DNA from: an uncultured Candidatus Saccharibacteria bacterium | GTDB lineage: Bacteria; Patescibacteriota; Minisyncoccia; Phycocordibacterales; UBA9988 | Length of the DNA stretch: 64,000 nucleotides | Assembly: GCA_964401135.1 (NCBI GenBank) | Contig: CAYNXC010000002.1 | Span: 16,457-80,456, forward strand | Direction of reading: 5' to 3' | Part shown: piece after piece, positions 32,504 through 52,104 of the stretch | Layout: each line of letters opens with the position of its first letter | Position numbering within the stretch: position 1 is the stretch's first letter | The notes under the pieces: model-generated | Told to the model about the DNA's origin: nothing | Databases searched by the model: none | What the model saw: only the letters and a program-made list of their open reading frames with translations | Made by a program: the position numbers and the translations under genes

Positions 32504-32588
32504 GGAGGGGTCGCATAGAGGCCTAGTGCGCGCGCTTGGAAAGCGCGTAAGGGTTACACCTTCGAGGGTTCGAATCCCTCCCTCTCCG
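32504..32588 (+). tRNA. tRNA-Ser (GGA), class II with a long variable arm.
   Basis: Acceptor GGAGGGG/CCTCTCC, anticodon stem CGCGC/GCGCG, loop TTGGAAA, variable hairpin AAGG-GTTACA-CCTT and T-arm GAGGG/CCCTC. Confidence 0.8.
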
Positions 32589-32666
32589 CACTAAGAACCT
32601 GGTAGTTTTGTGACCCAAGTACCTAAGGTTGTAGGGCGACCCAGGTACCTAGTAATTACCTGGAAA

Positions 32667-33911
32667 ATGCCCGACGAATATCGCAATCATCATTACGTAC
32701 CACAGTGGTACCAAAAGAAGTTCATGCTACCGAACGAGCATGAGTTATTTCACTTGGATTTAAAACCCGAGACGTTCACCGATCCTCGCGGCGTGGTTCA
32801 TACCAAGAAGCCATTACGGCGACAAGGTAGTAAAAAGTGTTTCGTCCAAGAGGATCTTTATACGACGAAGATTCAAGGTATCGAAACAAAGGATATAGAG
32901 AAATATTTCTTCGGCGATATTGATACCAAAGGTCGTCCTGCTGTCGAATATTTCGAGGGGTTTGATTATCCCCTTAAACCCTGGGGTGAATCACTTCAGG
33001 ACATCATGCGTTACATGAGTACACAGAAGCTCAGGACTCCGAAAGGTCTATCATTTCTTAGCGAGAAAATTGGAAGTAAGGATAAGGACGCGATTCTACG
33101 CAATATGATCCGAGTGCGTAATGTTCATGCCGCTATTTGGATGGAATGCGTCTGGCTTATTGCAGACGCTTCACAGTCGGAGACTAAATTCATCATCTCA
33201 GACCATCCCGTTACTGTTTATAATCGTGAATGCGGTCCTCGATCCAGTTACTGTCGAGACTCAAATGACCCCGAGATATGGCTTCAAGGTACGCATACAA
33301 TTTTTCCACTTTCCATAGATAAGGTTCTCATTCTCACAAATTTATCCTGGGTGCGGAATCCATATCAATCCGCAACCAATCTACGACCGAATCCAAATCC
33401 ATACCGCAATGCGATATTCAAATTTACTGACGTTCAGGTTCGACGACAATTAAGTGAACAAGAGGTACGAGAAATCAATTTCATCATAAAAAGCCGAGCT
33501 TCCCGATATGTAGCCGCAGCCAAAGAAGAATGGCTTTACCCAGAAAGACATGTATCCAAATCAGATTGGAACAAATACGGTCATGGATATCTTTTGATGC
33601 CCGATCCTCGCGCTATTCATTGGGGAGGAACCATAATGTGGGGCGGTGGCCCAGGCGGTCCAGGTGCAATGGATGAATATGGAAGACTGCCCGGAGATCC
33701 TGATTTTGAAGCAGAGACAACCAAAGGTAAGGAGTACCAAACGCTCCCTTGGTTTCAGGGAGAATTTGCAAAGCTGTTCGGTCCTTATCGCCGAGGCCGT
33801 TGTATGCAACATATTGAAATTGAAAAGGAACGGGACGATGATGAATTTCACCAGTACCATCTCGGTCTTCAGAAAAAGAGCTATAAGGAACGACACGGCA
33901 AGAAGAAATAG
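32667..33911 (+). CDS. DUF4238 family protein (HHYVPQ and SDHPV motifs). Cargo of the tRNA-Ser-adjacent island.
   Basis: The N-terminal RNHHYVPQWYQKKF and the central KFIISDHPVTV match the two hallmark motifs of DUF4238. The track ORF starts at 32610, but 32667 (MPDEY) is more plausible. Confidence 0.55.
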   Translation: MPDEYRNHHYVPQWYQKKFMLPNEHELFHLDLKPETFTDPRGVVHTKKPLRRQGSKKCFVQEDLYTTKIQGIETKDIEKYFFGDIDTKGRPAVEYFEGFDYPLKPWGESLQDIMRYMSTQKLRTPKGLSFLSEKIGSKDKDAILRNMIRVRNVHAAIWMECVWLIADASQSETKFIISDHPVTVYNRECGPRSSYCRDSNDPEIWLQGTHTIFPLSIDKVLILTNLSWVRNPYQSATNLRPNPNPYRNAIFKFTDVQVRRQLSEQEVREINFIIKSRASRYVAAAKEEWLYPERHVSKSDWNKYGHGYLLMPDPRAIHWGGTIMWGGGPGGPGAMDEYGRLPGDPDFEAETTKGKEYQTLPWFQGEFAKLFGPYRRGRCMQHIEIEKERDDDEFHQYHLGLQKKSYKERHGKKK

Positions 33912-33914
33912 TTT

Positions 33915-35225
33915 TTAGTTGGAGTCCTCTGTAAGCAGAGTAATCTTCTTATCGTTCAGCACCAATCTGCTTCTTAGATGACCCATCAGTTCACGCTTCT
34001 CAAGCGGTGTACCCTCGCGGAGTACGTATTTTGCATATTCCTTTGTCGCAATATCGTCTTCATCGATCTGCATCTTGGGCTTGCCTTTGACCGCAAGTCT
34101 CTGCAATCTATTGAATCGCTTAATTTCTTCTTCGAGCTTCATCCGCATGCCAAGCTCGTTCATGGTGAGCTTGTCGATAATCTTGAATAGTTCCTCGACG
34201 AGTTCTTCCTCGCGGATATATTTGTTCTTGCAGTTCCTGTCTCTCGCTTTCGAGCAAGAGTAGTAGACGTACTTTGCATTCGTGCCATCTTTGAGCAGTT
34301 TGTATTTCTCCTGCGCCGTGATGCCCGATCCGCACATGCCACAGGTAAATAATTTGGTGAAGGCAAACTCTCTGTTCTCGCGCACAACTTTGTCGCGCTT
34401 CAATTGCTCCTGCACTTTCTTGAATAATTCCTCGCTGATTAGCGGCTCATGTGTTCCTTGATACCAGTTGCCGCTGTTCTTTGGATACTCGAATGGTCCG
34501 TAATAAATGGGCATCTGGAGCATGCGATATACACCAGAGAGTGTGAGTGGCTTGTTACCTCGCGTATAGAAGTTAAGCTCGAAACGGAGCCAGTTGTACA
34601 CTTTTCTACCGCTCCACAAATCGTATGCCACTTTTTCAAACATCTGCTTCACGATCGGTGCACGTTGCGGATCAATAACGATACGGCATTTCTTTTCTAT
34701 CAATTTCTGGTTGAGATATCCGAGCGGCGCCATGCCCGGCCACAACCCCATCTCCACTCTCGTTCTCAAACCTCGCTTCACGTTGATGCCCCGGTTGTCG
34801 TTCTCGAGCTTCGCCTGCGATCCAAGGATCATGAGGAGGAATTTTTCATTCGGATTATTAGTAAACTTTTGTCCGTAGGTGCGTATTTCCTTGAGCTTTC
34901 CAACGTCCATAAGATCGATCACTTTGCCGAGGTCGCCTGCGTTACGGCTGATGCGATCCGGCGCCCATGTGAGGATACCGTTGTATTTGTCATCCCTAAT
35001 TTCTTCGATGATCTCGTTAAATACAGGGCGCTGGCCAGTCTCCTTGGCGGAGTGAGATTCTCGCTTCATTGTCACAACTTCCAAATTTTCTCGCTCTGCT
35101 AGCTGGAGCATCTCCTTGATCTGGGAATCGATAGAAAGCGCCTGTCGTTCCTCCGCTTCGCTCGACTTGCGGGCATACAGGCAATATCTGATTGGTTTCT
35201 GTTCCTTTACGGTTGCGTTTTCCAT
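33915..35225 (-). CDS. Large serine recombinase (integrase).
   Basis: N-terminal resolvase catalytic domain (YARKSS catalytic Ser, DRISRN), a recombinase domain, and a Cys4 zinc ribbon (CGMCGS...CSKARDRNC) with a coiled-coil tail. 436 aa. Confidence 0.85.
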   Translation of the reverse strand: MENATVKEQKPIRYCLYARKSSEAEERQALSIDSQIKEMLQLAERENLEVVTMKRESHSAKETGQRPVFNEIIEEIRDDKYNGILTWAPDRISRNAGDLGKVIDLMDVGKLKEIRTYGQKFTNNPNEKFLLMILGSQAKLENDNRGINVKRGLRTRVEMGLWPGMAPLGYLNQKLIEKKCRIVIDPQRAPIVKQMFEKVAYDLWSGRKVYNWLRFELNFYTRGNKPLTLSGVYRMLQMPIYYGPFEYPKNSGNWYQGTHEPLISEELFKKVQEQLKRDKVVRENREFAFTKLFTCGMCGSGITAQEKYKLLKDGTNAKYVYYSCSKARDRNCKNKYIREEELVEELFKIIDKLTMNELGMRMKLEEEIKRFNRLQRLAVKGKPKMQIDEDDIATKEYAKYVLREGTPLEKRELMGHLRSRLVLNDKKITLLTEDSN

Positions 35226-35349
35226 GCATACACGAACATACCGGATACGGGTACGAAGTCTAGCCGCATACGAAACACAGAGCAGAAGCGGGAGGAAGTC
35301 AACTACACAAAAATCCCGAGGGAAGCTAAGGTCTTTTAGGGGGTGAGAA

Positions 35350-35562
35350 TTAAAAACTAATGAGATTGTTCACTTTAAGCCCTAGTGCTTTGGCGATCTT
35401 CTCCATGTTGGTGAGTGTAATGTTTTTCTCGGCACGTTCAATCATACCGATGTATGTCCTGTGGACTTTAGCCAACTGCCCTAAGCGCTCTTGAGAAATA
35501 TCGCGTTTCAGTCGTTCTTCTCGGACTCTTTTGCCAAATTGTATGAGAATAGTCTTGTTCAT
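35350..35562 (-). CDS. XRE-family HTH transcriptional regulator (cI/Cro-like repressor).
   Basis: 70 aa with the HTH_3 motif (SQERLGQLAKVHRTYIGMIERAEKNITLTNMEKIAKAL). Confidence 0.8.
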   Translation of the reverse strand: MNKTILIQFGKRVREERLKRDISQERLGQLAKVHRTYIGMIERAEKNITLTNMEKIAKALGLKVNNLISF

Positions 35563-35586
35563 CTACACCGTTAAGTGTAGGAATTT

Positions 35587-35651
35587 GCTAACTTTGGTTC
35601 TATATACTATAGTTAGCATATATTCTTGAGAATTTTCATTGCAAAATTCTC
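35587..35651. promoter_or_regulatory. Two palindromic candidate operators in the divergent region between the XRE gene and the surface-protein gene.
   Basis: GCTAACT-N17-AGTTAGC at 35587..35617 and GAGAATTTT-N6-AAAATTCTC at 35628..35651. Confidence 0.4.
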
Positions 35652-35661
35652 GGGGGGGGGG
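35652..35661 (+). repeat. G10 homopolymeric tract 20 nt upstream of the ATG of the surface-protein gene.
   Basis: cGGGGGGGGGGtaaaattgagaacaatattcATG. It abuts operator palindrome 2. Confidence 0.9.
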
Positions 35662-35681
35662 TAAAATTGAGAACAATATTC

Positions 35682-36521
35682 ATGAATAAAATCTTTAAAA
35701 GACTACTCGTATTTGCGGTACTATTTGCTCTTACTTCTTCGAATGTTTTTGCTGCAACTAAAACCTGGGACTTTTCCACTTCGTCGGACTACACTTTTGA
35801 TACTACTAAAATTGAAGTCATAGGAGGACAAGCACAATTGAAAGCTACAACAACTCCTGCTTGGTATGACACCAGTTGGAAATATAGAAAGAAAATATCA
35901 ATTGACCATACAAAAATATCGTCAGATTTAACAGATTTTCCTGTTCTCGTTAATCAAACTTCTGACTCAGACTTGGCAGCCAAAGCGTTAACGTCAGGTA
36001 ACGATATATTTTTCACTTCATCTGATGGAGTTACAAAACTAAGCCACGAAATAGAGACATATGCATCAACAACAGGAGCTTTAGCTGCATGGATTAAAGT
36101 TCCTACAGTATCCTCTTCTGTAGATACTGATGTTTATATGTATTATGGTAATGCTGCAGCTTCTGCTCAAGCGAATGCAAATGGAGTATGGGATAGTAAT
36201 TCAATTGTTGTTCAACATCTTAATGCTACTACTAGCCCAGCACTAGACTCAACATCTAATGCGAATAGTGGAGTTCAGTCTGGAGGAGTTACTTTCAGTG
36301 CAACAGGCAAGATAGGTAATGCTGTGAGCATGGACGGTGTTAATGACAAACTATCCTTAACAAGTAATAGTGGCTTAAACGCAACAGGCACCCTAAGTAT
36401 TAGTGCATGGGTAAATAGAACTGCATCGGGCAAGATGAGGGTAGTTGCAAAAACAGTTACTACTGGAACAACTGACAACCCATATGATTTTGGTATAAAT
36501 ACGGATAATACACTTTATTTA
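35682..36521 (+). pseudogene. 5' fragment (about 280 codons) of a large secreted DUF2341/LamG-like surface-protein gene, interrupted by IS insertion.
   Basis: Signal peptide MNKIFKRLLVFAVLFALTSSNVFAA, a DUF2341-like WKYRKKISIDHTKISSDLTDFPVLV, and a LamG-like region. The frame runs into the IS left inverted repeat and stops 9 codons later. Confidence 0.75.
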
Positions 36522-36551
36522 AGGGAACTATATACAATGTTACCCTAAAAA

Positions 36552-37085
36552 TTAATTAGATTTTGGTTTGTCTAAATCTTCCAAAGAAAAGCCCAGGTCA
36601 GGAAAAATAAGATTTCTTAGATAAATACTCCCTGCAAAAAGAACGGTATTAATATCAACTCCAGACTGGAAAGCCCCTTGTTTGAGTGATTCTACAACAT
36701 CAGGACAATGTATTGGTAACTCCATCATTATCTCGGATATTACTTTCTCTGCATCATAAGGATTAGTCGTATTTTTACTTTGAACTAATTTTAGAAGTTC
36801 GTCTTTTTTTGCGTCAATAATTTCTTTAATTCCGCTATCATCTAAGATAGCTTGCCCTCTTGAGTTTAATTGTCGTGGAGAATTAGCAGGTGCAATTTTG
36901 TCTTTCCATAGAATATCCAGTTTAGGGAACATATCTGCCACTTTGGGTTTAATGTCTTTAATATCTTCCAGCATAAAATTTGTTCTTTCATCAATCCTCG
37001 CAATCAATTCACGAGTATTACCCAACAGGATAGCAGAAATCCAGTTACCTGCTTTTTTGGCTAAATTAAGGGCTTGTTGTTCCAT
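36552..37085 (-). CDS. Hypothetical 177-aa passenger protein of the IS element, function unknown.
   Basis: Intact ORF between IRL and the transposase gene, on the opposite strand. No motif recognised. Confidence 0.5.
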   Translation of the reverse strand: MEQQALNLAKKAGNWISAILLGNTRELIARIDERTNFMLEDIKDIKPKVADMFPKLDILWKDKIAPANSPRQLNSRGQAILDDSGIKEIIDAKKDELLKLVQSKNTTNPYDAEKVISEIMMELPIHCPDVVESLKQGAFQSGVDINTVLFAGSIYLRNLIFPDLGFSLEDLDKPKSN

Positions 37086-37197
37086 AGGATTATTACATTA
37101 CTAGTATATCAAAACGGCTGTTGCAAGTTAATACTAGTCAAAAAGTTACCCCCAATTATTACTTGACAACCCTATTGTGATCGTATAAGCTATAGGT

Positions 37198-38115
37198 ATG
37201 GATAGCCGATACAAAACCTTGGTAGAGTTCCTCGCCCACTTTAAGGATGAGGAAACCTGTCAAAAATACTTTGAGCAAATCCGCTTCTCCCAAGGCGAGT
37301 ATTGCCCTCATTGTAACCACAGTAAAATCAACCGCTTTTCAGACGGCAAACGCTTTCGCTGTGCTAAGTGCAAAAAGGACTTCACTATTAAGACCAAGAC
37401 CGTCTTTGGCGAAAGCAAAATCTCAATGCAGAAATGGTTTGTCGCAATTTACCTTTTGTCCGTCAATAAGAAAGGCATTAGCTCTATTAACCTAGCCGAG
37501 CAAGTGGGCGTTACTCAAAAGACCGCGTGGTTTATGGATCATCGTATTCGTAAAGCCTTGAAACAAAATAGCGGTCAGTTGTTTGGCACAGTAGAAATAG
37601 ACGAAACCTATATCGGCGGCAAGGAAAAGAACAAGCACGCCCACAAGCGAACCAAGCGCACCCAAGGCCGAAACACTTTGACCAAAACCCCTGTAATGGG
37701 AATGATACAGCGAGGCGGTGCAATGAAAGCCAAAGTGATAGATAATGTAAAGATGCGAACCTTGGAAAGTCTGATTATTGAAAATGTAAAAATTGGGACA
37801 CAGCTCTACACAGACGAGTTTTTGTCTTACTCCAAAATCGGCAGTCTCTTTGCTCACGAGGCCGTGTCACACGGCAAAGGCCAGTATGTAAAAGGTGATA
37901 GCCACTCCAACACCGCCGAGAGTTTTTGGGCATTGTTTAAGCGTGGCTACTACGGCACTTACCACAACATGAGTAAGAAGCATTTGCAGAAGTATGTGGA
38001 CGAGTTCGTGTATCGCTTTAACAACCGAGCCGTGGAGCTAGCCGATGTATTCACTGATGTCGTGGCGAATGTAGCGGGTAGCGAGAAGCTGGCTTATAAG
38101 ACTCTTACCGCTTAA
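37198..38115 (+). CDS. IS1595-family DDE transposase.
   Basis: N-terminal zinc ribbon (CPHCNHSKI...FRCAKCKKDF), VEIDETYIGGKEKNKH, SNTAESFWALFKRGYYGTYH and YVDEFVYRFNNR blocks characteristic of IS1595/ISXO2-like transposases. Confidence 0.85.
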   Translation: MDSRYKTLVEFLAHFKDEETCQKYFEQIRFSQGEYCPHCNHSKINRFSDGKRFRCAKCKKDFTIKTKTVFGESKISMQKWFVAIYLLSVNKKGISSINLAEQVGVTQKTAWFMDHRIRKALKQNSGQLFGTVEIDETYIGGKEKNKHAHKRTKRTQGRNTLTKTPVMGMIQRGGAMKAKVIDNVKMRTLESLIIENVKIGTQLYTDEFLSYSKIGSLFAHEAVSHGKGQYVKGDSHSNTAESFWALFKRGYYGTYHNMSKKHLQKYVDEFVYRFNNRAVELADVFTDVVANVAGSEKLAYKTLTA

Positions 38116-38116
38116 T

Positions 38117-39025
38117 ATGTCCCCACGAGAACGCAAATATCACGAGGGGTTAGGGGTAGACTTTAATCAAGCTCTTGTCTCTATTGCTGGTGAGAACCGA
38201 ACCGAGCGGAGTATCGCCGCCCGACCATTTCTAAAGTGGGTCGGTGGCAAGCGGTCAATCCTGCCAGAGCTTCTAAAGCGGTTGCCGACCAAGTATGACG
38301 CTTACCATGAGCTGTTTCTAGGCGGTGGTGCGTTGTACTTCGCCGTCCAGCCAGAGGAGGCTTATCTGTCTGATGTAAACTTCCACCTCATCCTTACTTT
38401 CAAGGCGGTGCGAGATGATCTGGACAGCTTAATCCGTCAGTTAAAAATCCACGAACGATTACACAACAAGGAATACTATCTCAAAGCTCGCCAGAAGCTC
38501 TTTAAGGAAAAGGACACCACCAAACTGGCGGCTCTCTTTATCTACCTCAATAAAACTTGCTTCAATGGTCTTTACCGAGTAAACAAGGGGGGTGGCTTCA
38601 ATGTCCCGATGGGCGACTACAAAGACCCAAACATTTTAGACGAGGAAAATCTGCGTAATGCTTCAAAGGTTTTAGCGACCGCCGAGATTAAACAGCACGG
38701 CTTTGAGCATACCAAAATCTACAAAGGCGACTTCTACTATCTTGACCCGCCCTATCACGAAACCTATAGCGGTTATGATGGCTCTGGCTTTGGCGATGAA
38801 CACCACCGCAAGCTCGCCGAGTTCTGCAAACAGATAGACCAAAAGGGCAGTTACTTTATGCTCTCCAACAGCGACACGCCATTTGTCAGAGAGTTATATA
38901 AGGGCTATACTATTGAGCAAGTAGAGGCTTCACGAAATGTCTCTTGCAAAGCCCACCAGCGAGGCAAAGAAAATGAGCTTATCATCCGAAACTACACCAA
39001 TAACGGGGGGCGGACAAGCCAATAA
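38117..39025 (+). CDS. Dam-family N6-adenine DNA methyltransferase (alpha class).
   Basis: FLKWVGGKRSILPELL (SAM-binding motif I) and YYLDPPY (motif IV). About 300 aa. Confidence 0.85.
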   Translation: MSPRERKYHEGLGVDFNQALVSIAGENRTERSIAARPFLKWVGGKRSILPELLKRLPTKYDAYHELFLGGGALYFAVQPEEAYLSDVNFHLILTFKAVRDDLDSLIRQLKIHERLHNKEYYLKARQKLFKEKDTTKLAALFIYLNKTCFNGLYRVNKGGGFNVPMGDYKDPNILDEENLRNASKVLATAEIKQHGFEHTKIYKGDFYYLDPPYHETYSGYDGSGFGDEHHRKLAEFCKQIDQKGSYFMLSNSDTPFVRELYKGYTIEQVEASRNVSCKAHQRGKENELIIRNYTNNGGRTSQ

Positions 39026-39473
39026 AACGGGCAGTGTTTTAGAGCTATTTATCAAGCGACTTTTAGAGGACAACGGCTACACCGCCTTTCCTAACCACAA
39101 AGCCCAGCTATTCGCCAATCGTAAAACTGTCGGTGGTAAGCAATACTCTACCCAAGTTCCTTGTGGTACGAGTATCTACGAAACCCAGCGTAAATGCGAC
39201 TTCTTGATCATGAACCAAGACAAGTTCCCCGATGGACTGGTGATTGAGTGCAAGTGGCAACAGTCTACTGGCTCGGTAGACGAGAAGTACCCTTTTACCT
39301 TGTTTAACATCATCAAGATCGGCGTGCCAACCATCATTCTGCTGGACGGCAACGGCTACAAAAAGGCGGCGATGAAGTGGTTAAAAGACCAAGTGAACCC
39401 ACAGAGAGCCTTAATCGGCGTTTACAATATGGCCGAGTTTCAAGCTATGGTAAATAAGGGGTTTTTAGGTTAG
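38937..39473 (+). CDS. Short PD-(D/E)XK nuclease, the putative restriction endonuclease partner of the Dam methylase.
   Basis: CDFLIM...GLVIECKWQ gives a D...ExK core. It overlaps the 3' end of the methylase gene (possible true start M13 at 38973), and its stop is inside the IRR. Confidence 0.55.
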   Translation: MSLAKPTSEAKKMSLSSETTPITGGGQANKTGSVLELFIKRLLEDNGYTAFPNHKAQLFANRKTVGGKQYSTQVPCGTSIYETQRKCDFLIMNQDKFPDGLVIECKWQQSTGSVDEKYPFTLFNIIKIGVPTIILLDGNGYKKAAMKWLKDQVNPQRALIGVYNMAEFQAMVNKGFLG

Positions 39474-39490
39474 GGTAACTTTGTATATAA

Positions 39491-42190
39491 TTCCCTTATT
39501 TAAATCGTGCAGATTCAAGTGTTGTAAATTTTCTATCAAGTTCAACAACTGTACCGACAAATTCATGGACAAAAATTGAAGTAATTGATGACACTGTCGT
39601 TAAAAGTGCTTTCAACAGCGTCTCAAAATTAGTCACCCTAGCGACATCTACAAGAGCGTGGCAGGGGGTAGCAAGTGATGGGACTTATATCTATGCAATT
39701 GGACAAAATGCTATTTCGCAGTTTGATATGCAAGGTAATTTTATAAAAGAAAAGAATAATGTATACAGTGGTTTTACTGGTGGCAACATCCTAGGTAATG
39801 GAACAGTAATTAATGGAAAGTTATATGTCGGGGCATATAATGCGAATACTTTAGGAGCGTCAACAAATCCTAATTACACTCCGTTATCAGATCTTCAATC
39901 AAAAATTGCTGTCTTTAGCCTATCTGATTTTTCATTAATTGAAGATTTTAACCTTGGTACTCAAGTAAAAATTGCTGAGGGTGTTGATTATCACAATGGT
40001 TACTTTTGGGTAGTTGATGGATGGTTTGATACTTTCGTCGTAAAAAAATACGATACTAGTTTTAATTTAGTCTCTACGTATAGCTTGCCTGTAGCAAATG
40101 CTTTCGCTGGAGAATTAACATACCAAAATATTAATTGGTATGGGAATGACATTTTTGTTAATTGGCATGGCTCAAATTCTTTTGGACAAACCTATGCTTA
40201 TGGGTTGGATCATTATTCTTTTGACGGAACAAATTTTAATTTTGTAGAACGATTAAGACCAGTAACATATGGTGCAGGTCAAGGTATTGCAATTGTCGGA
40301 AATACGTTTTATTGGGCAGATAGACCTGGAAATGCGATCTACAAATCAACATATGTTGGAGCTGGAAATGGTGATGATGGTATTGATCCATCACATACAA
40401 AATTTTTCATAAATGGAGTTGGTGAGCTTGCTCATGTAAGTACTGGCTCTCTCACTGTGCTTTCACCTACAAGTAATACCAGTCCAACGGTTATTGGAAC
40501 TAGGGGCGATTCAAGTAGTTTTTATAAAGGTGTCATAGATGAAGTTCGAATTTCAAATGCGGCAAGATCAGATGCATGGGTCTCGGCAAGTTACGCCAAT
40601 GAAAACTCACCAAGTACATTCTATTCGATGGGTTCGGAACAAAAAAATTATGCAGCTACTAACCCGACTGTTAATCCCACATCATTAAATGCGCAAGCCT
40701 TCTCATCCCTGTCAGGCTTTTCAGCAGTTGAAGTAAGTAATGGAGGAAATATAAAGTATCAAGTTTCAAATGATGGAGGAACCACATGGTATTGGTACAA
40801 CTCTGGCTGGAATACAACAACTTCAGGATACTCTGAGACAAATGCATCTTCAACTATAAATACAAATATCGCTTCTTTACCTGTAGGAAGTGGATCATAC
40901 TTATTTAAAGCATATTTAAATTCTGATGGAACGCAGCAACCTCAGATAGACAGTGTGGTGCTCACATACTCTGCGCCACTTGATATTACAGCTCCTATTA
41001 TATCTGCGATAGCGTCTTCTACATCCCAAACTTCAGCAACTATTACCTGGACGACCGATGAATCAGCCACATCAACGGTAAATTATGGTCTTAACACTTC
41101 ATACGGTACAGCGTCATCCTCATCATCTCTCGTTACCTCTCATTCGATATCCTTGTCAGGATTAACCGCATCAACCGCATACCATTTCCAAGTAGCATCA
41201 GCTGACGCTTCTGGAAACGTTGCAACTTCTTCAGACTATACATTCACCACAACAGCAGTGCCTGACACAACGCCTCCGGTCATTTCATCAATTTCTTCCG
41301 GTTCACTTTCAACTTCAGGAACAACTATAACTTGGACCACTGATGAAGCTGCGGATTCCCAAGTTAACTACGGCACAAGTGCCTCATATGGATCACAGAC
41401 GACCCTTGATTCAACACTAGTGACGAGTCACTCCATTGTAATTTCAGGTCTTTCTGCAGGAACGACGTATCACTACCAAGTAGTGTCAAAAGATGCTTCT
41501 GGAAACACAGCTACATCTTCTGACCAAACCTTTACCACTTCAGCACAGCCTTCGAGCGGGGGTTCATCAAGCGGATCATATTCCGGAGGAGGCTCAATCC
41601 TTATCCAACCTTCTGTGCCGGGCTGTCCTACAGGATTCAATTGTGTAGTAAATCCAACCCCTACCATTTTACCAAATACTTTTACTCGTGATCTCACCAT
41701 AAAAAGTACTGGTAGTGATGTGAAGGTATTGCAGCAGTTCCTGATCGCTAAAGGCTTTCTTGCGAGCGGCAATGACACGGGATACTTTGGTCCTCTGACG
41801 CAAGCTGCTCTCGCGCAATACCAGCTTTCGATGGGTATTAAACCATCGGTTGGATATTTCGGCTCACTTACTCGTGCAGTCATTGCTGTCTCGCAGAACA
41901 TATCACCTACTACTCCATCAATATCAACAAATCCGACGGTACTTCCAAGCACGTTTACTCGAGATCTGTATTTCGGCATGAGTGGAGACGATGTAAAACT
42001 CTTGCAAAAGTTCCTTAATGACCATCAATTTATAGTCAGCCAAACTGGCGCAGGATCTCCAGGACTTGAATCAAATTATTTCGGCCCAGCCACCCGAGAC
42101 GCCCTTATTCGTTTTCAGACTTACAATCACATAGTCCCTGCAGTAGGGTATTTTGGTTCGCTTACACGCCAATTCGTAAATGGTCAGTAG
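39491..42190 (+). pseudogene. 3' portion (about 896 codons) of the IS-interrupted surface-protein gene, with two FN3-like domains and two peptidoglycan-binding (PG_binding_1-like) domains.
   Basis: The frame is open from 39491, immediately after the IRR. ITWTTDESATSTVNYG...AYHFQVASADASGN occurs twice (FN3/PAP-N-like), and GSDVKVLQQFL...YFGPLTQAAL occurs twice (PG-binding). The track ORF starts at an internal ATG, 39728. Confidence 0.75.
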
Positions 42191-42233
42191 GAGTGGATAA
42201 CCCGACTACACAAATCTAAAGAAGGAAGCTAAG

Positions 42234-42596
42234 TTACTTACGTTCGTCCTCAGGCCATGGCTTTGGGCCGAACATCTCGTCGATCTTCTTGATCTCGTCT
42301 TCTGTAAGTTCGCGCTTCGGAGGCCGTTCCGGTACTGGGTCTCCTTTGTACTTCGGCGGCTTTCCGTCCATATGCTCCCAGATGAGCTTGATCATCCGAT
42401 GATCGCCGTCCAGTGCCATCCTTATGATTTTCTCAACCAACGCATCTGCAATAGTCTTGTCTTTATCACTCACAATCCTTTTACTGAGTATCTCTTGGAA
42501 TTGGCTCGTTAGTGTTTTGCCCGGAGGCCTTCCGTTCAAGTTTCTTCTCGGGTCGAATCCGCTTTGGAATGGCTTGAGGTTATTGATGTTGCCCAT
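42234..42596 (-). CDS. Small basic protein with an N-terminal LKPFQSGFDPRRNLNGRP motif (DUF5681-like / AT-hook-like). Tandem paralogue 1.
   Basis: Start placed at MGNINNLKPF by alignment with the neighbouring paralogue. Confidence 0.5.
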   Translation of the reverse strand: MGNINNLKPFQSGFDPRRNLNGRPPGKTLTSQFQEILSKRIVSDKDKTIADALVEKIIRMALDGDHRMIKLIWEHMDGKPPKYKGDPVPERPPKRELTEDEIKKIDEMFGPKPWPEDERK

Positions 42597-42945
42597 GGTC
42601 GTTTCGTTTAAAATACTTCTCAAAATCCGCCTGTTCTTCGGGCGTGTACTCGACCTTTTCTTGCGGTACAAATGGGGTAGGTACCACAAACTCGTCAGGC
42701 ACCTTGCCGTCCACTTGGTCGATGACCATACTCATGGCTTTCAGGTTGCCCTTGGCCGCCTTCCACACAAGCTGCATTACGATAGCCTTATCCTTCCGTG
42801 CCATCTTGCCGTTGAAGTAGACTTTCTCCTTCAATATTTCCATAATCACGGTTCTCACATTCCGAGAACCCTTCGGTCTACCCTTGGTATTCCTTCTTGG
42901 ATCGTACCCTGATTGAAAGGGCTTCAATGTTTTTATATTTCCCAT
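42580..42945 (-). CDS. Small basic protein with an N-terminal LKPFQSGYDPRRNTKGRPKGSRN motif. Tandem paralogue 2.
   Basis: Start placed at MGNIKTLKPF. The shared N-terminal motif and the central helical block align with paralogue 1. Overlaps paralogue 1 by 17 bp. Confidence 0.5.
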   Translation of the reverse strand: MGNIKTLKPFQSGYDPRRNTKGRPKGSRNVRTVIMEILKEKVYFNGKMARKDKAIVMQLVWKAAKGNLKAMSMVIDQVDGKVPDEFVVPTPFVPQEKVEYTPEEQADFEKYFKRNDHGQHQ

Positions 42946-43252
42946 ATCTGGTATTTTACCGGCTTTTTTGTTTGTAAAGGGGTGCATTACTTTCTCGCAG
43001 TTATTTTCACAGATAAAAGGGTGAAAAACGGCTTCTTTTAAGCCTTCGATTTTTCCCGTAATTTCACAGTATTTACGGGTATTTTGACCCCGACCCACAA
43101 ACCTCCTTCGGCTTCCCGAAAAAGTGCTAGAATACCCTTACGACACCTAATCATATGGGTACCGTACCCATAGCCCCCGCAAATTGAAACTTCCTGTTCC
43201 GAAAGCCGAATTGACCGTTGCATGAATAGTATTATCGTCCTAATATATATAC

Positions 43253-50067: not shown

Positions 50068-52104
50068 ATGAAAAAAATTGCATTGCTTACCGTTGCAGTG
50101 CTTGCACTTGGTGCTGTCGTAGTGCCCGCTTCAGCGAGCGCGTTGACCGCAAATGAAATCTTGCAAGCGTTGTCAGCGGATCCAGCCCTGCTCTCGCAAC
50201 TACAGGCACTCCTCGGTGGTACAGCCACAACTGGCGGTACATCATCAGCAGGAAGCCTTGCTGCAGTTCAGGCACTTACTAAAGATTTGACTATCGGTTC
50301 AAAGGGTGCGGATGTAACCGCTCTCCAGACCTGGCTCGTAGAGGAAGGATACATGGTAATGCCGGTAGGCGTTCCTATGGGATACTTTGGGACTTTGACA
50401 CAGAAGGCCCTCGCACAGTGGCAAGCAGAGAATGCAGTCACTCCTGCAGCAGGATACTTTGGTCCTAAGACCCGAGGCGTTATCGCTACACTCTCAAGCA
50501 CAGTCACTCCTGGCGGCACCTTGCCAGCAGGTTGTACTTCAACAGCTGGTTACAGTTCCACAACTGGTGCAAAGTGTGATGGTTCCACAACTGGTTCAAC
50601 CACTGGTGGAACAATCTCAACACCCGGTGTTGAAGGTACGCTTTCTGCAACACAGTCAACATCCGGAATCAGTTCAACTATCTATGAAGGTGATGATCAG
50701 GTAGCTATCCTCGGTGTTAAACTTGAGGCAGACAGCTCTGACATCATGGTTCAGAGAGTGAAGATTGACCTTGGTACAACCACGAAGATCTACAACAAGA
50801 TCTACTCAAAGTTGTATGTCACTGAAGGAGGTAACCTCCTTGCAGAGGCAGCACTCAACTCATCCACAGTGGTGAAAGAGAGCGGCCGCTACTACATTAC
50901 GATCTCAGGCTTCAACCTCCTTGTTCCTAAGGATGGTTCCAAGACGGTCGTAATCAAGGCGGATGTGTACTCAAGCATTGATTCAACAGATCGTAGCGCT
51001 GGTGACATTACCCTCTCATGGGGTGTTCGCCTAGCTTCAAATGGTTTCCGTGGTGTTGATGGTGCTGGTATTGACCAGTACGCAGGTACAACTTCAATCG
51101 GTAAGTCGATTACTATATCGGCAAGCCTCGTTGAATCAGCAACACTTGACCTCGCAGATAACTCAAGCTCTCCTTCAGCAGCCGATGTAGTTGCTGCAGA
51201 TGGTTCAGCAAACAATGAACTTGATAAGTTGACCCTCCTCACTTTCAACCTTACTGCAAAGAAGGATGATGTGACAGTGACCGACCTTGCAATTGATATT
51301 GACAAGGGAGGCACCGGTGGAGCAACAGCTTCAACAACAGTGTACCTCTATGAGGGTGACACTGAGCTCGAAAACGCAACTGTTGATAGCAGTGCTGCAA
51401 ACGGCAGCTATGTAGTCTTCTCAAGCGACGAGCTCTTCACAGTTTCAAAGGATGCGACCAAGACCTTGACTGTTAAGGTTGATGTCCGAAACGCTAATGG
51501 AACAGTGTCGACGCTGTCAGCGACTGCTTCTTCATCTGGTATCACTGCTGAGAACTCACAAGGCGACACAGTGTCAGTCAGTGGTTCAGCAACTGGCGAG
51601 TCACAGTATGTACGTAATGTTGGTCCAGTGTTCACATTGGTATCAAAGAGTGTAGAGCGCTCAGTTTCAACTGACAATCAAATCTCTACAACCACATCAC
51701 AAGCAACCTTCACCGTTAAGGTAAAGGCAGTAGGTGGCAGTATCACCTTTGGTTCTGTTGCTTCTACCGCTCCGATGTTTGGTAGCTCAACTCCGTACTT
51801 CGTGACCTATGTCAACGGTGCAGCGCAGACGCTCCTGGTCGCTTCATCCACAGACTTCTCAATCCCTTCATCGGGAGTGACCACGTCTGGATTGGATAAC
51901 AGCTTCACCTTGGCAGAAAACAATGAAGTAACCATCCCAGTATCATTCACCTTTGTCAGTAAGACTGCGGCTGGCGCAAATGCGTTTACAGGTTCAAACT
52001 CTGTCGCGACTGCGCTTGAGCGCATCCGCTGGGCAGGTGCACAGACCACGACCTTTATGGCTGGCGACACTGATTGGAGAGCTTCAAGCGTAACAATGCC
52101 GTAA
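50068..52104 (+). CDS. Large secreted protein with N-terminal peptidoglycan-binding repeats and Ig-like/Big-type beta domains.
   Basis: Signal peptide MKKIALLTVAVLALGAVVVPASASA and two PG-binding-like segments (GADVTALQTWLVEEGY...YFGTLTQKALAQWQ, YFGPKTRGVIA). Confidence 0.65.
   Translation: MKKIALLTVAVLALGAVVVPASASALTANEILQALSADPALLSQLQALLGGTATTGGTSSAGSLAAVQALTKDLTIGSKGADVTALQTWLVEEGYMVMPVGVPMGYFGTLTQKALAQWQAENAVTPAAGYFGPKTRGVIATLSSTVTPGGTLPAGCTSTAGYSSTTGAKCDGSTTGSTTGGTISTPGVEGTLSATQSTSGISSTIYEGDDQVAILGVKLEADSSDIMVQRVKIDLGTTTKIYNKIYSKLYVTEGGNLLAEAALNSSTVVKESGRYYITISGFNLLVPKDGSKTVVIKADVYSSIDSTDRSAGDITLSWGVRLASNGFRGVDGAGIDQYAGTTSIGKSITISASLVESATLDLADNSSSPSAADVVAADGSANNELDKLTLLTFNLTAKKDDVTVTDLAIDIDKGGTGGATASTTVYLYEGDTELENATVDSSAANGSYVVFSSDELFTVSKDATKTLTVKVDVRNANGTVSTLSATASSSGITAENSQGDTVSVSGSATGESQYVRNVGPVFTLVSKSVERSVSTDNQISTTTSQATFTVKVKAVGGSITFGSVASTAPMFGSSTPYFVTYVNGAAQTLLVASSTDFSIPSSGVTTSGLDNSFTLAENNEVTIPVSFTFVSKTAAGANAFTGSNSVATALERIRWAGAQTTTFMAGDTDWRASSVTMP

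Follow-up and report, generated by a model that had tools for sequence, protein, structure and literature searches.

Does the run of ten G at the start of a large surface-protein gene act as a switch for that gene, and by which route would a change in its length be felt? The tract lies in the 119-nt spacer between the surface gene and a divergent regulator gene, within a 64-kb stretch of DNA that we refer to as the window. An earlier note on this sequence had proposed potential phase variation layered on repressor control, and its description of the spacer is accurate: G10 occupies 35652–35661, with 20 nt between the tract and the ATG at 35682; a palindrome with 9-bp arms (35628–35636 and 35643–35651) and a 6-nt centre abuts the tract; GCTAACT-N17-AGTTAGC lies upstream at 35587–35617; and the adjacent divergent gene is an XRE gene encoding a 70-aa HTH_3 protein (35350–35562, minus strand). 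Our analysis leads us to favor a reading in which the promoter spacer subjects the surface gene to phase or volume variation, and to this reading we assign a probability of roughly 60% from sequence comparison. The elements at the center of this reading are listed below; here and in later lists, features without a direction are given without a strand.

35652–35661, plus strand: G10 homopolymer, putative hypermutable element with alleles G9, G10 and G11
35639–35667, plus strand: predicted start-proximal promoter P2, with -35 TTGCAA at 35639–35644, a 17-bp spacer at 35645–35661 and -10 TAAAAT at 35662–35667
35682–36522, plus strand: 5′ part of the surface gene, encoding a signal peptide, DUF2341 and the start of LamG, cut by a transposon
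36523–39486: IS1595-family transposon of 2964 bp (Pfam DDE_Tnp_IS1595, 9.2e-44), absent from contigs L001, L002 and L182
39487–42190, plus strand: 3′ part of the surface gene, encoding the rest of LamG, fn3 / Pur_ac_phosph_N-like repeats and two PG_binding_1 domains (P0001, 100% identical)

The length of the tract does change, in sequence that is otherwise identical. The G10 allele of the window is shared by contig L166 (SRR10580904), which is 100% identical to the window across 14.7 kb and probably comes from the same sample; G11 is carried by L001, L167 and L180 (SRR27197509) and by L182 (SRR27197517), and G9 by L002 (SRR27901409). No differences were found in the intergenic region outside the tract among the G9, G10 and G11 carriers, and over the ~10 kb aligned between the window and L001, tract length is the sole difference outside the transposon, with zero substitutions. 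A G7 run taken as a control was constant in length in strains 0.6–1.0% diverged by substitution and gap-free over 5–10 kb. Additional alleles were sought through the flanking genes (LemA, cupin and small island ORFs); this search produced the G11 contig L182 and a broken assembly, L003/L192, and yielded no tract lengths beyond G9, G10 and G11. The broken assembly belongs to SRR27197514, the fourth sample in the G11 series; it splits the locus over two contigs, of which L192 starts at the first G of the tract and carries exactly ten G. Such a start is expected of a de Bruijn assembler if G10 and longer alleles coexist, and the assembly break is an indirect hint of mixed tract alleles inside this sample. 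The other contig, L003, ends at 35620; a direct effect of the tract was rejected as the cause of this end, which does not match the expected position.

At ten bases, the run exceeds the length of about 8 nt at which homopolymers become prone to slippage, and it is the only run of eight or more G or C in the 64-kb window. When the window was shuffled, G8 matches were equally numerous in 10 of 100 shuffles, so the mere existence of the tract is weak evidence for a function. The tract is missing from all relatives in a comparison set built on the neighboring regulator, which comprises 160 XRE-homologue loci of 59–90% identity from many phyla, 153 of them with enough upstream sequence to be compared. 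We considered and rejected G tracts as a general upstream trait of the XRE family, as G/C runs of at least 7 occur in a scattered 7 of the 153 loci, several of them within terminator-like hairpins and none equivalently placed. Judged by its alleles, the tract is evidently a hypermutable site.

A consensus scan for sigma-70-like sites returned two on the plus strand, P1 and P2, the second of which encloses the tract. P2 scores 9/12, a level that the scan reaches about 1.6 times in every 700 nt of shuffled sequence. Ten of the 17 bases in its spacer belong to the tract, which accordingly sits between the predicted -35 and -10 of the gene that it would regulate, and the G9, G10 and G11 alleles correspond to spacers of 16, 17 and 18 bp. 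The -10 of P2 ends 14 nt before the ATG, and the resulting leader of ~6–9 nt is odd by E. coli standards. Across the window, a promoter scoring at least 8/12 with its -10 ending 3–16 nt before the start codon is present at 16 of 45 gene starts versus 6% of random positions, and SD-like motifs are found in only 8 of 46 genes; a start-proximal promoter therefore appears to be the usual gene-start architecture here. The earlier suggestion that tract length alters promoter spacing or RBS context is thus supported in its first half, the tract falling in the predicted P2 spacer. Its second half is unlikely, given the scarcity of SD-like motifs, the 20 nt that separate the tract from the ATG and leader folds that are essentially the same in all three alleles.

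In the mechanism that we propose, slipped-strand events would act on a G run that makes up most of the P2 spacer, ahead of a gene for a 1175-aa secreted and peptidoglycan-anchored surface protein. The gain or loss of one G would set the spacer at 16, 17 or 18 bp and so alter promoter strength, and the outcome would be heritable yet reversible differences between lineages in the amount of surface protein. Such a switch would act on transcription, as phase or “volume” variation does at porA, fetA and tp0126. We infer that P2 is the promoter truly in use, that spacer length affects expression and that, within a population, the tract switches often and reversibly. Because all of the alleles fall within the generally functional range of 16–18 bp, the effect of slippage could be a modest tuning of expression rather than ON/OFF control.

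This arrangement has well-described counterparts. In Neisseria, a tract between the -35 and -10 controls expression of porA (poly-G) and fetA (poly-C) (PMC5320596), and T. pallidum tp0126 has a poly-G in its promoter spacer with an optimum of 17 bp (PMC7864442). As in these genes and in tprL (poly-G), the window has a G/C homopolymer of ~8–14 nt between the hexamers of an outer-surface protein gene, with a strain-dependent tract length; 17 bp, the spacing given by G10 here, is optimal in the known systems (PMC5320596, PMC7864442). Unlike those systems, the present host is not an animal pathogen but an uncultivated, ultra-small, Vogelbacteria-like member of the Patescibacteria, the promoter is start-proximal with a very short leader and no SD, and a 7.6-kb serine-recombinase island carries the gene as cargo. 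We consider that the locus is probably a real and functional promoter-spacer contingency locus.

The remainder of the spacer is occupied by two inverted repeats, a second promoter-like site and the control region of the divergent gene, which together with the regulator gene itself comprise the following features.

35350–35562, minus strand: 70-aa XRE/HTH_3 regulator of the R-M controller (C) protein family (Pfam HTH_3; HRTY recognition helix)
35574–35602, minus strand: candidate XRE promoter, with -35 TAGAAC at 35597–35602, a 17-bp spacer and -10 TACACT at 35574–35579; weak, 7/12
35585–35619: IR1, putative C-box-type double operator of XRE, TTGCTAACTTTGGTTCTATATACTATAGTTAGCAT, which includes the outward promoter-like site P1
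35587–35617: GCTAACT (35587–35593) and AGTTAGC (35611–35617), N17 apart, the outer part of IR1
35585–35613, plus strand: promoter-like site P1, TTGCTA-17-TATAGT, with -35 at 35585–35590 and -10 at 35608–35613, from the consensus scan
35628–35651: IR2, a perfect 9-bp inverted repeat, GAGAATTTT-CATTGC-AAAATTCTC, with arms at 35628–35636 and 35643–35651

Upstream of the tract, a conserved 34-bp double operator of the divergent XRE would form an independent second layer of control. Compared with solved structures, XRE is closest to C.BclI (1.9e-11) and C.AhdI (3.1e-11), with C.Esp1396I also close and HRTYI aligned. About 25 nt before the XRE start, a near-identical 34-bp element (TTGCTAACTnTGGTTCTACATACTATAGTTAGCA in window orientation) recurs in 103–108 of the 153 loci. 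The consensus from 108 loci, in XRE orientation, is ATGCTAACTATAGTATGTAGAACTAAAGTTAGCAAGTG, which consists of two palindromic boxes 15 bp apart with a TGTA centre; the window has TATA at this centre versus TGTA in 108/108 relatives, a change of an invariant G to A. Two palindromic boxes around a TGTA centre are the C-box architecture of HRTY-type C proteins, and in C.PvuII the OR overlaps the -35 (PMC2175313). Inverted repeats of at least 7 bp arise in 14.5% of shuffles of the 119-nt spacer; the arms of IR1 are thus unremarkable by chance, and support for this element comes from its conservation instead. With conservation at the homologue loci, membership of XRE in the C-protein family and a C-box architecture paired with an HRTY helix, the identification of the upstream palindrome as the XRE double operator has good comparative support. 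The -10 of the candidate XRE promoter lies 11 nt before the XRE ATG and its -35 falls inside the promoter-proximal operator box. The window therefore resembles the C.PvuII, C.BclI, C.AhdI and C.Esp1396I systems in its HRTY helix, its double C-box operator and its candidate -35 in the proximal box, but departs from the C-box in having half-boxes of AAC-N4-GTT rather than GACT-N3-AGTC and, as noted, a TATA centre.

Like R-M C proteins, XRE homologues immediately precede type II endonucleases of various kinds, and the next gene is usually one of these (MamI, ScaI, MunI, BstXI, Eco29kI, BglI). In the window, the gene after XRE encodes not an endonuclease but a serine recombinase, and the island that carries both has no R-M genes. 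Since many homologues precede endonucleases while the neighbor here is a recombinase, XRE is evidently a C-family protein by descent that does not control an R-M system at this locus. XRE presumably controls its own expression along with that of the serine recombinase gene that follows, and when bound it would cover P1, the outward site pointing toward the surface gene. The hexamers of P1 double as operator half-sites, so their conservation is no proof of promoter activity. In at least 37 XRE relatives an ATG lies 6–8 nt past the P1 -10, as for a leaderless divergent small gene, and the window has ATA there. Divergent methyltransferase genes were examined as the usual target of P1 and rejected, as the upstream neighbors of the homologues are heterogeneous. 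P1 could also transcribe the surface gene, independently of tract length.

The palindrome that abuts the tract appears to be of a different nature. IR2 overlaps the -35 of P2, and its last base directly precedes the first G of the tract; a perfect inverted repeat of at least 9 bp arises in the 119-nt spacer in 1.2% of dinucleotide shuffles. It is single-copy in the window, no IR2-like sequence was found upstream of XRE homologues (0/153 loci), and it bears no resemblance to the half-sites of the XRE operator, from which we conclude that IR2 is probably not an XRE site. Of the two palindromes that the earlier note had taken for XRE operators, GCTAACT-N17-AGTTAGC retains that role and IR2 loses it. 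We regard IR2, over the -35 of P2, as a lineage-specific candidate operator for a factor other than XRE; a search of viral contigs for its exact pattern gave no match. In a transcript reading through from P1, IR2 is predicted to fold into an RNA hairpin of 12–14 bp. IR2 and the tract were also considered as an intrinsic terminator or attenuator, and this was rejected, as neither strand has a T run and the terminator scan was empty. Folds of the P1-initiated leader give the same hairpin at near-equal energy for G9, G10 and G11, with z about -1 versus shuffles, and an allele-dependent RNA structure was rejected on these grounds. An Rfam search of the leader returned no family, even at E <=1.

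Several other accounts of the tract have to be set against promoter-spacer variation. Any G10 would be prone to slip, and the lengths observed here may mark a neutral mutational hot spot at which they differ without regulatory effect. Spacers of 16–18 bp are usually all functional, which favors such an account, yet the known systems show a measurable change in strength across 16, 17 and 18 bp (PMC7864442). The tract is kept in no relative and a G10 run is not very improbable from composition, but within an AT-rich spacer it should decay fast unless maintained. The surface gene is dispensable, with an IS-disrupted allele and island-free strains in existence; nevertheless, a tract flanked by two good hexamers that end 14 nt ahead of the start codon of a surface gene reproduces the known layout of a contingency locus, and on balance we consider neutrality unlikely. 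Errors of sequencing or assembly are a highly improbable source of the different lengths. While homopolymers of ten or more bases are error-prone, all of the relatives come from short-read metagenome assemblies and the SRR27197514 assembly breaks at the tract, two samples agree on G11 and two assemblies on G10, with G9 in L002. Furthermore, assemblers output the majority path, no further indel occurs within ~10 kb, and the G7 run is stable among the diverged strains compared.

The tract might instead act after transcription or through the geometry of regulatory elements. In a translational model, transcripts from P1 would use a short-leader TTG at 35626, which opens a frame through the tract. 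Allele translations lend this model some appeal: with G10 the frame stops at TAA 35662, with G9 the stop TAA overlaps the surface-gene ATG and would allow translational coupling, and with G11 the frame is fused in frame to the surface ORF, adding 19 residues before the signal peptide. The P1 -10 ends 12 nt before the TTG, within the start-proximal range of this genome, and the relatives with a leaderless small gene just past P1 offer a parallel. We nonetheless hold the model to be very improbable, as a TTG that has no SD and is off the extreme 5′ end makes a poor start codon, the 12-aa peptide lacks homologues, the conservation of P1 is confounded by its operator half-sites, and nothing requires the TTG frame. 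Equally little credence attaches to the proposal that the tract alters the phasing of three GAGAA(T)T copies (35628, 35645–35651 inverted, and 35669) or acts through a 5′-UTR RNA element. No candidate binding protein presents itself for these copies, IR2 occurs once in the window, the leaders of all three alleles fold almost alike and with no greater stability than shuffles, and Rfam offers no match; in its favor are a TTGAGAA direct repeat, with copies 41 nt apart, that flanks the tract, and the statistically unusual IR2. There is also a precedent from H. influenzae, in which SSR phase variation is reported to act via a 5′-UTR RNA element, with RNase III and 5′-UTR processing involved (PMC12721329). 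Both cases have, ahead of a surface-related gene, an intergenic repeat beside a sequence that can form a hairpin; unlike the H. influenzae case, the predicted leader fold here is unaffected by tract length and the tract lies upstream of the P2 -10.

Promoter-spacer variation in the window itself would act on a gene that is no longer whole. The large surface-protein gene of the earlier note is real, its uninterrupted form in L001, L002 and L182 encoding 1175 aa with DUF2341, Laminin_G_3, fn3 / Pur_ac_phosph_N-like repeats and two PG_binding_1 domains, but in the window it is split by a transposon, and the ORF from ATG 35682 encodes 288 aa with the signal peptide and DUF2341. The contigs with the intact gene were located via an exact-protein look-up of XRE; an exact look-up of the 288-aa truncated product gave no record, and the surface gene had no close homologue with which it could be compared. 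The element responsible belongs to the IS1595 family by its transposase, its terminal inverted repeats of ~26 bp (36514–36548 and 39470–39504) and its 8-bp target duplication, TTATTTAA, and the uninterrupted target site is present in L001 and L002. Besides the transposase, the element encodes a D12 adenine methyltransferase, a PD-(D/E)XK nuclease and a protein of 177 aa for which no matches were found. The surface gene is thus, by its sequence organization, insertionally inactivated in the window. The domain make-up of the intact protein is typical of a contingency-gene product.

The transposon is nested in a larger mobile element, which has the following parts.

32504–32589: tRNA-Ser(GGA), the island insertion site
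32590–43181: mobile island of 7.6 kb, not counting the transposon, inserted at the tRNA-Ser(GGA) 3′ end, with CCGCA at both junctions
33915–35225, minus strand: large serine recombinase (integrase) downstream of XRE (Pfam Resolvase, Recombinase, Zn_ribbon_recom; PHROG integrase)

The island contains XRE, the recombinase, a DUF4238 gene and the surface gene. Five contigs of other samples (L183, L184, L186, L188 and L189) have empty sites in which the tRNA end joins 43182, two further contigs have different elements at the same tRNA-Ser site, and in L002 the same island adjoins another tRNA-Ser; three lineages only carry the island. An att site right after the surface gene in L001 was considered and rejected, as L001 is collinear with the window minus the transposon. 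Insertion at tRNA-Ser, the empty sites and the relocation in L002 mark the tract-controlled gene as apparent mobile-element cargo, variable in island presence, in IS disruption and in tract length. Its knockout by a transposon in one population and its absence from most strains point to strong fluctuating selection on the surface gene.

The prevailing view of Patescibacteria is that they live attached to other microbes, with their large surface proteins as the likely contact organs. To our knowledge, most of what is known about surface-protein variation in this group concerns diversity-generating retroelements and coding repeats. The full-text literature that we searched holds no report of phase variation in Patescibacteria: a study of the candidate phyla radiation describes a hypervariable coding repeat and not a promoter homopolymer (PMC6851277), and the “phase variations” of another paper are meant in the geochemical sense (PMC6792436). 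The mechanism put forward here is classical, and what would be new is its occurrence in a group without a described case in the literature searched. If the reading is true, and a promoter homopolymer on a mobile island changes in length faster than any other site, stochastic switching of surface proteins, classical in pathogens, would extend to environmental symbionts, and the island would offer a ready-made switch module that can spread horizontally. A more elaborate scenario would make this the first CPR contingency locus, in which a serine-recombinase island moves between the tRNA-Ser sites of different Patescibacteria genomes with a giant, probably host-attachment, surface protein. Its tract would set both the spacing of P2 and the frame relative to an upstream short-leader start under a domesticated C-protein switch, giving three states, coupled with G9, uncoupled with G10 and fused with G11; taken as a whole, we find this scenario distinctly improbable.

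The identity of the host follows from its RecA, which is 91% identical to that of Candidatus Vogelbacteria and marks the organism, by this comparison, as a Vogelbacteria-like member of the Parcubacteria / Patescibacteria. Genes for 23S rRNA, 5S rRNA and seven tRNAs are also present in the window.

The regulatory gene upstream of the surface-protein gene encodes a homologue of restriction-modification (R-M) controller (C) proteins, XRE (35350-35562), which is preceded by a C-box-type operator and followed by a large serine recombinase (33915-35225). As a recombinase rather than an endonuclease follows the C protein homologue, the timing switch of an R-M system may have been co-opted here for integrase control. 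These genes lie on a mobile island at a tRNA gene, and the surface-protein gene on this island is itself interrupted by a transposon. The main features are as follows.

32590-43181: serine-recombinase island, 7.6 kb, at the 3' end of tRNA-Ser(GGA) (32504-32589)
36523-39486: IS1595-family transposon, inserted in the LamG-coding part of the surface gene
36552-37085, minus strand: 177-aa protein, transposon cargo
38117-39025: D12 adenine methyltransferase, transposon cargo
38937-39473: PD-(D/E)XK nuclease, transposon cargo
50068-52104: gene for a 678-aa protein that weakly matches PG_binding_1

The island is bounded by CCGCA at both junctions. Its site is empty in five contigs among L183-L189, while in L185 and L187 the tRNA-Ser(GGA) site is occupied by other elements instead. 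The same island is found in L002, but there it adjoins another tRNA-Ser. The transposon possesses terminal inverted repeats of ~26 bp and is flanked by an 8-bp target duplication, TTATTTAA; the surface genes of L001, L002, and L182 lack it. Its methyltransferase and nuclease form a complete-looking type II R-M pair, and the 177-aa protein has no family match.

At the operator center (35603-35606) the window, L001, and L002 carry TATA in place of TGTA, the central G of which is kept in 108 of 108 homologue loci. No other C-box position is as well conserved as this G, according to the literature. Directly 5' of the XRE start codon (35563-35580) there is also a small inverted repeat, CTACAC-N6-GTGTAG, one arm of which coincides with the candidate -10 element (TACACT) of the XRE promoter; at the same position in relatives L085-L091 the arms covary (e.g., ACCTAC...GTAGGT and ATCTAC...GTAGAT). 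In the closest Patescibacteria relatives (L084, L092, L004, and others), the gene divergent from XRE encodes a very small hydrophobic protein, e.g., MNIYLFIVIIVILLGVF..., with its ATG 6-8 nt downstream of the operator TATAGT; the corresponding ATG has been lost in the window.

Assembly of SRR27197514 is interrupted within this region, with contig L003 ending at window position 35620 and L192 beginning at 35652, leaving exactly 31 nt (35621-35651) missing between them. The right-hand break, at the start of L192, is compatible with mixed lengths of the G tract. For the left-hand break, conceivable causes are a variant close to the (AT)3 run at 35618-35623, a further element with the same operator, or trimming by the assembler.

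Across the whole window, Shine-Dalgarno motifs were found at only eight of 46 gene starts. A -10 box 3-16 nt before the start, with a -35 box at 16-18 bp, was present at 16 of 45, compared to 6% of random positions. Together, these observations suggest that leaderless or very short-leader mRNAs are widespread in this Vogelbacteria-like genome.

The 678-aa gene is a further variable envelope-associated gene: comparison of the window with L180 shows several indels in it, along with clusters of substitutions, between nearly identical flanking sequences.
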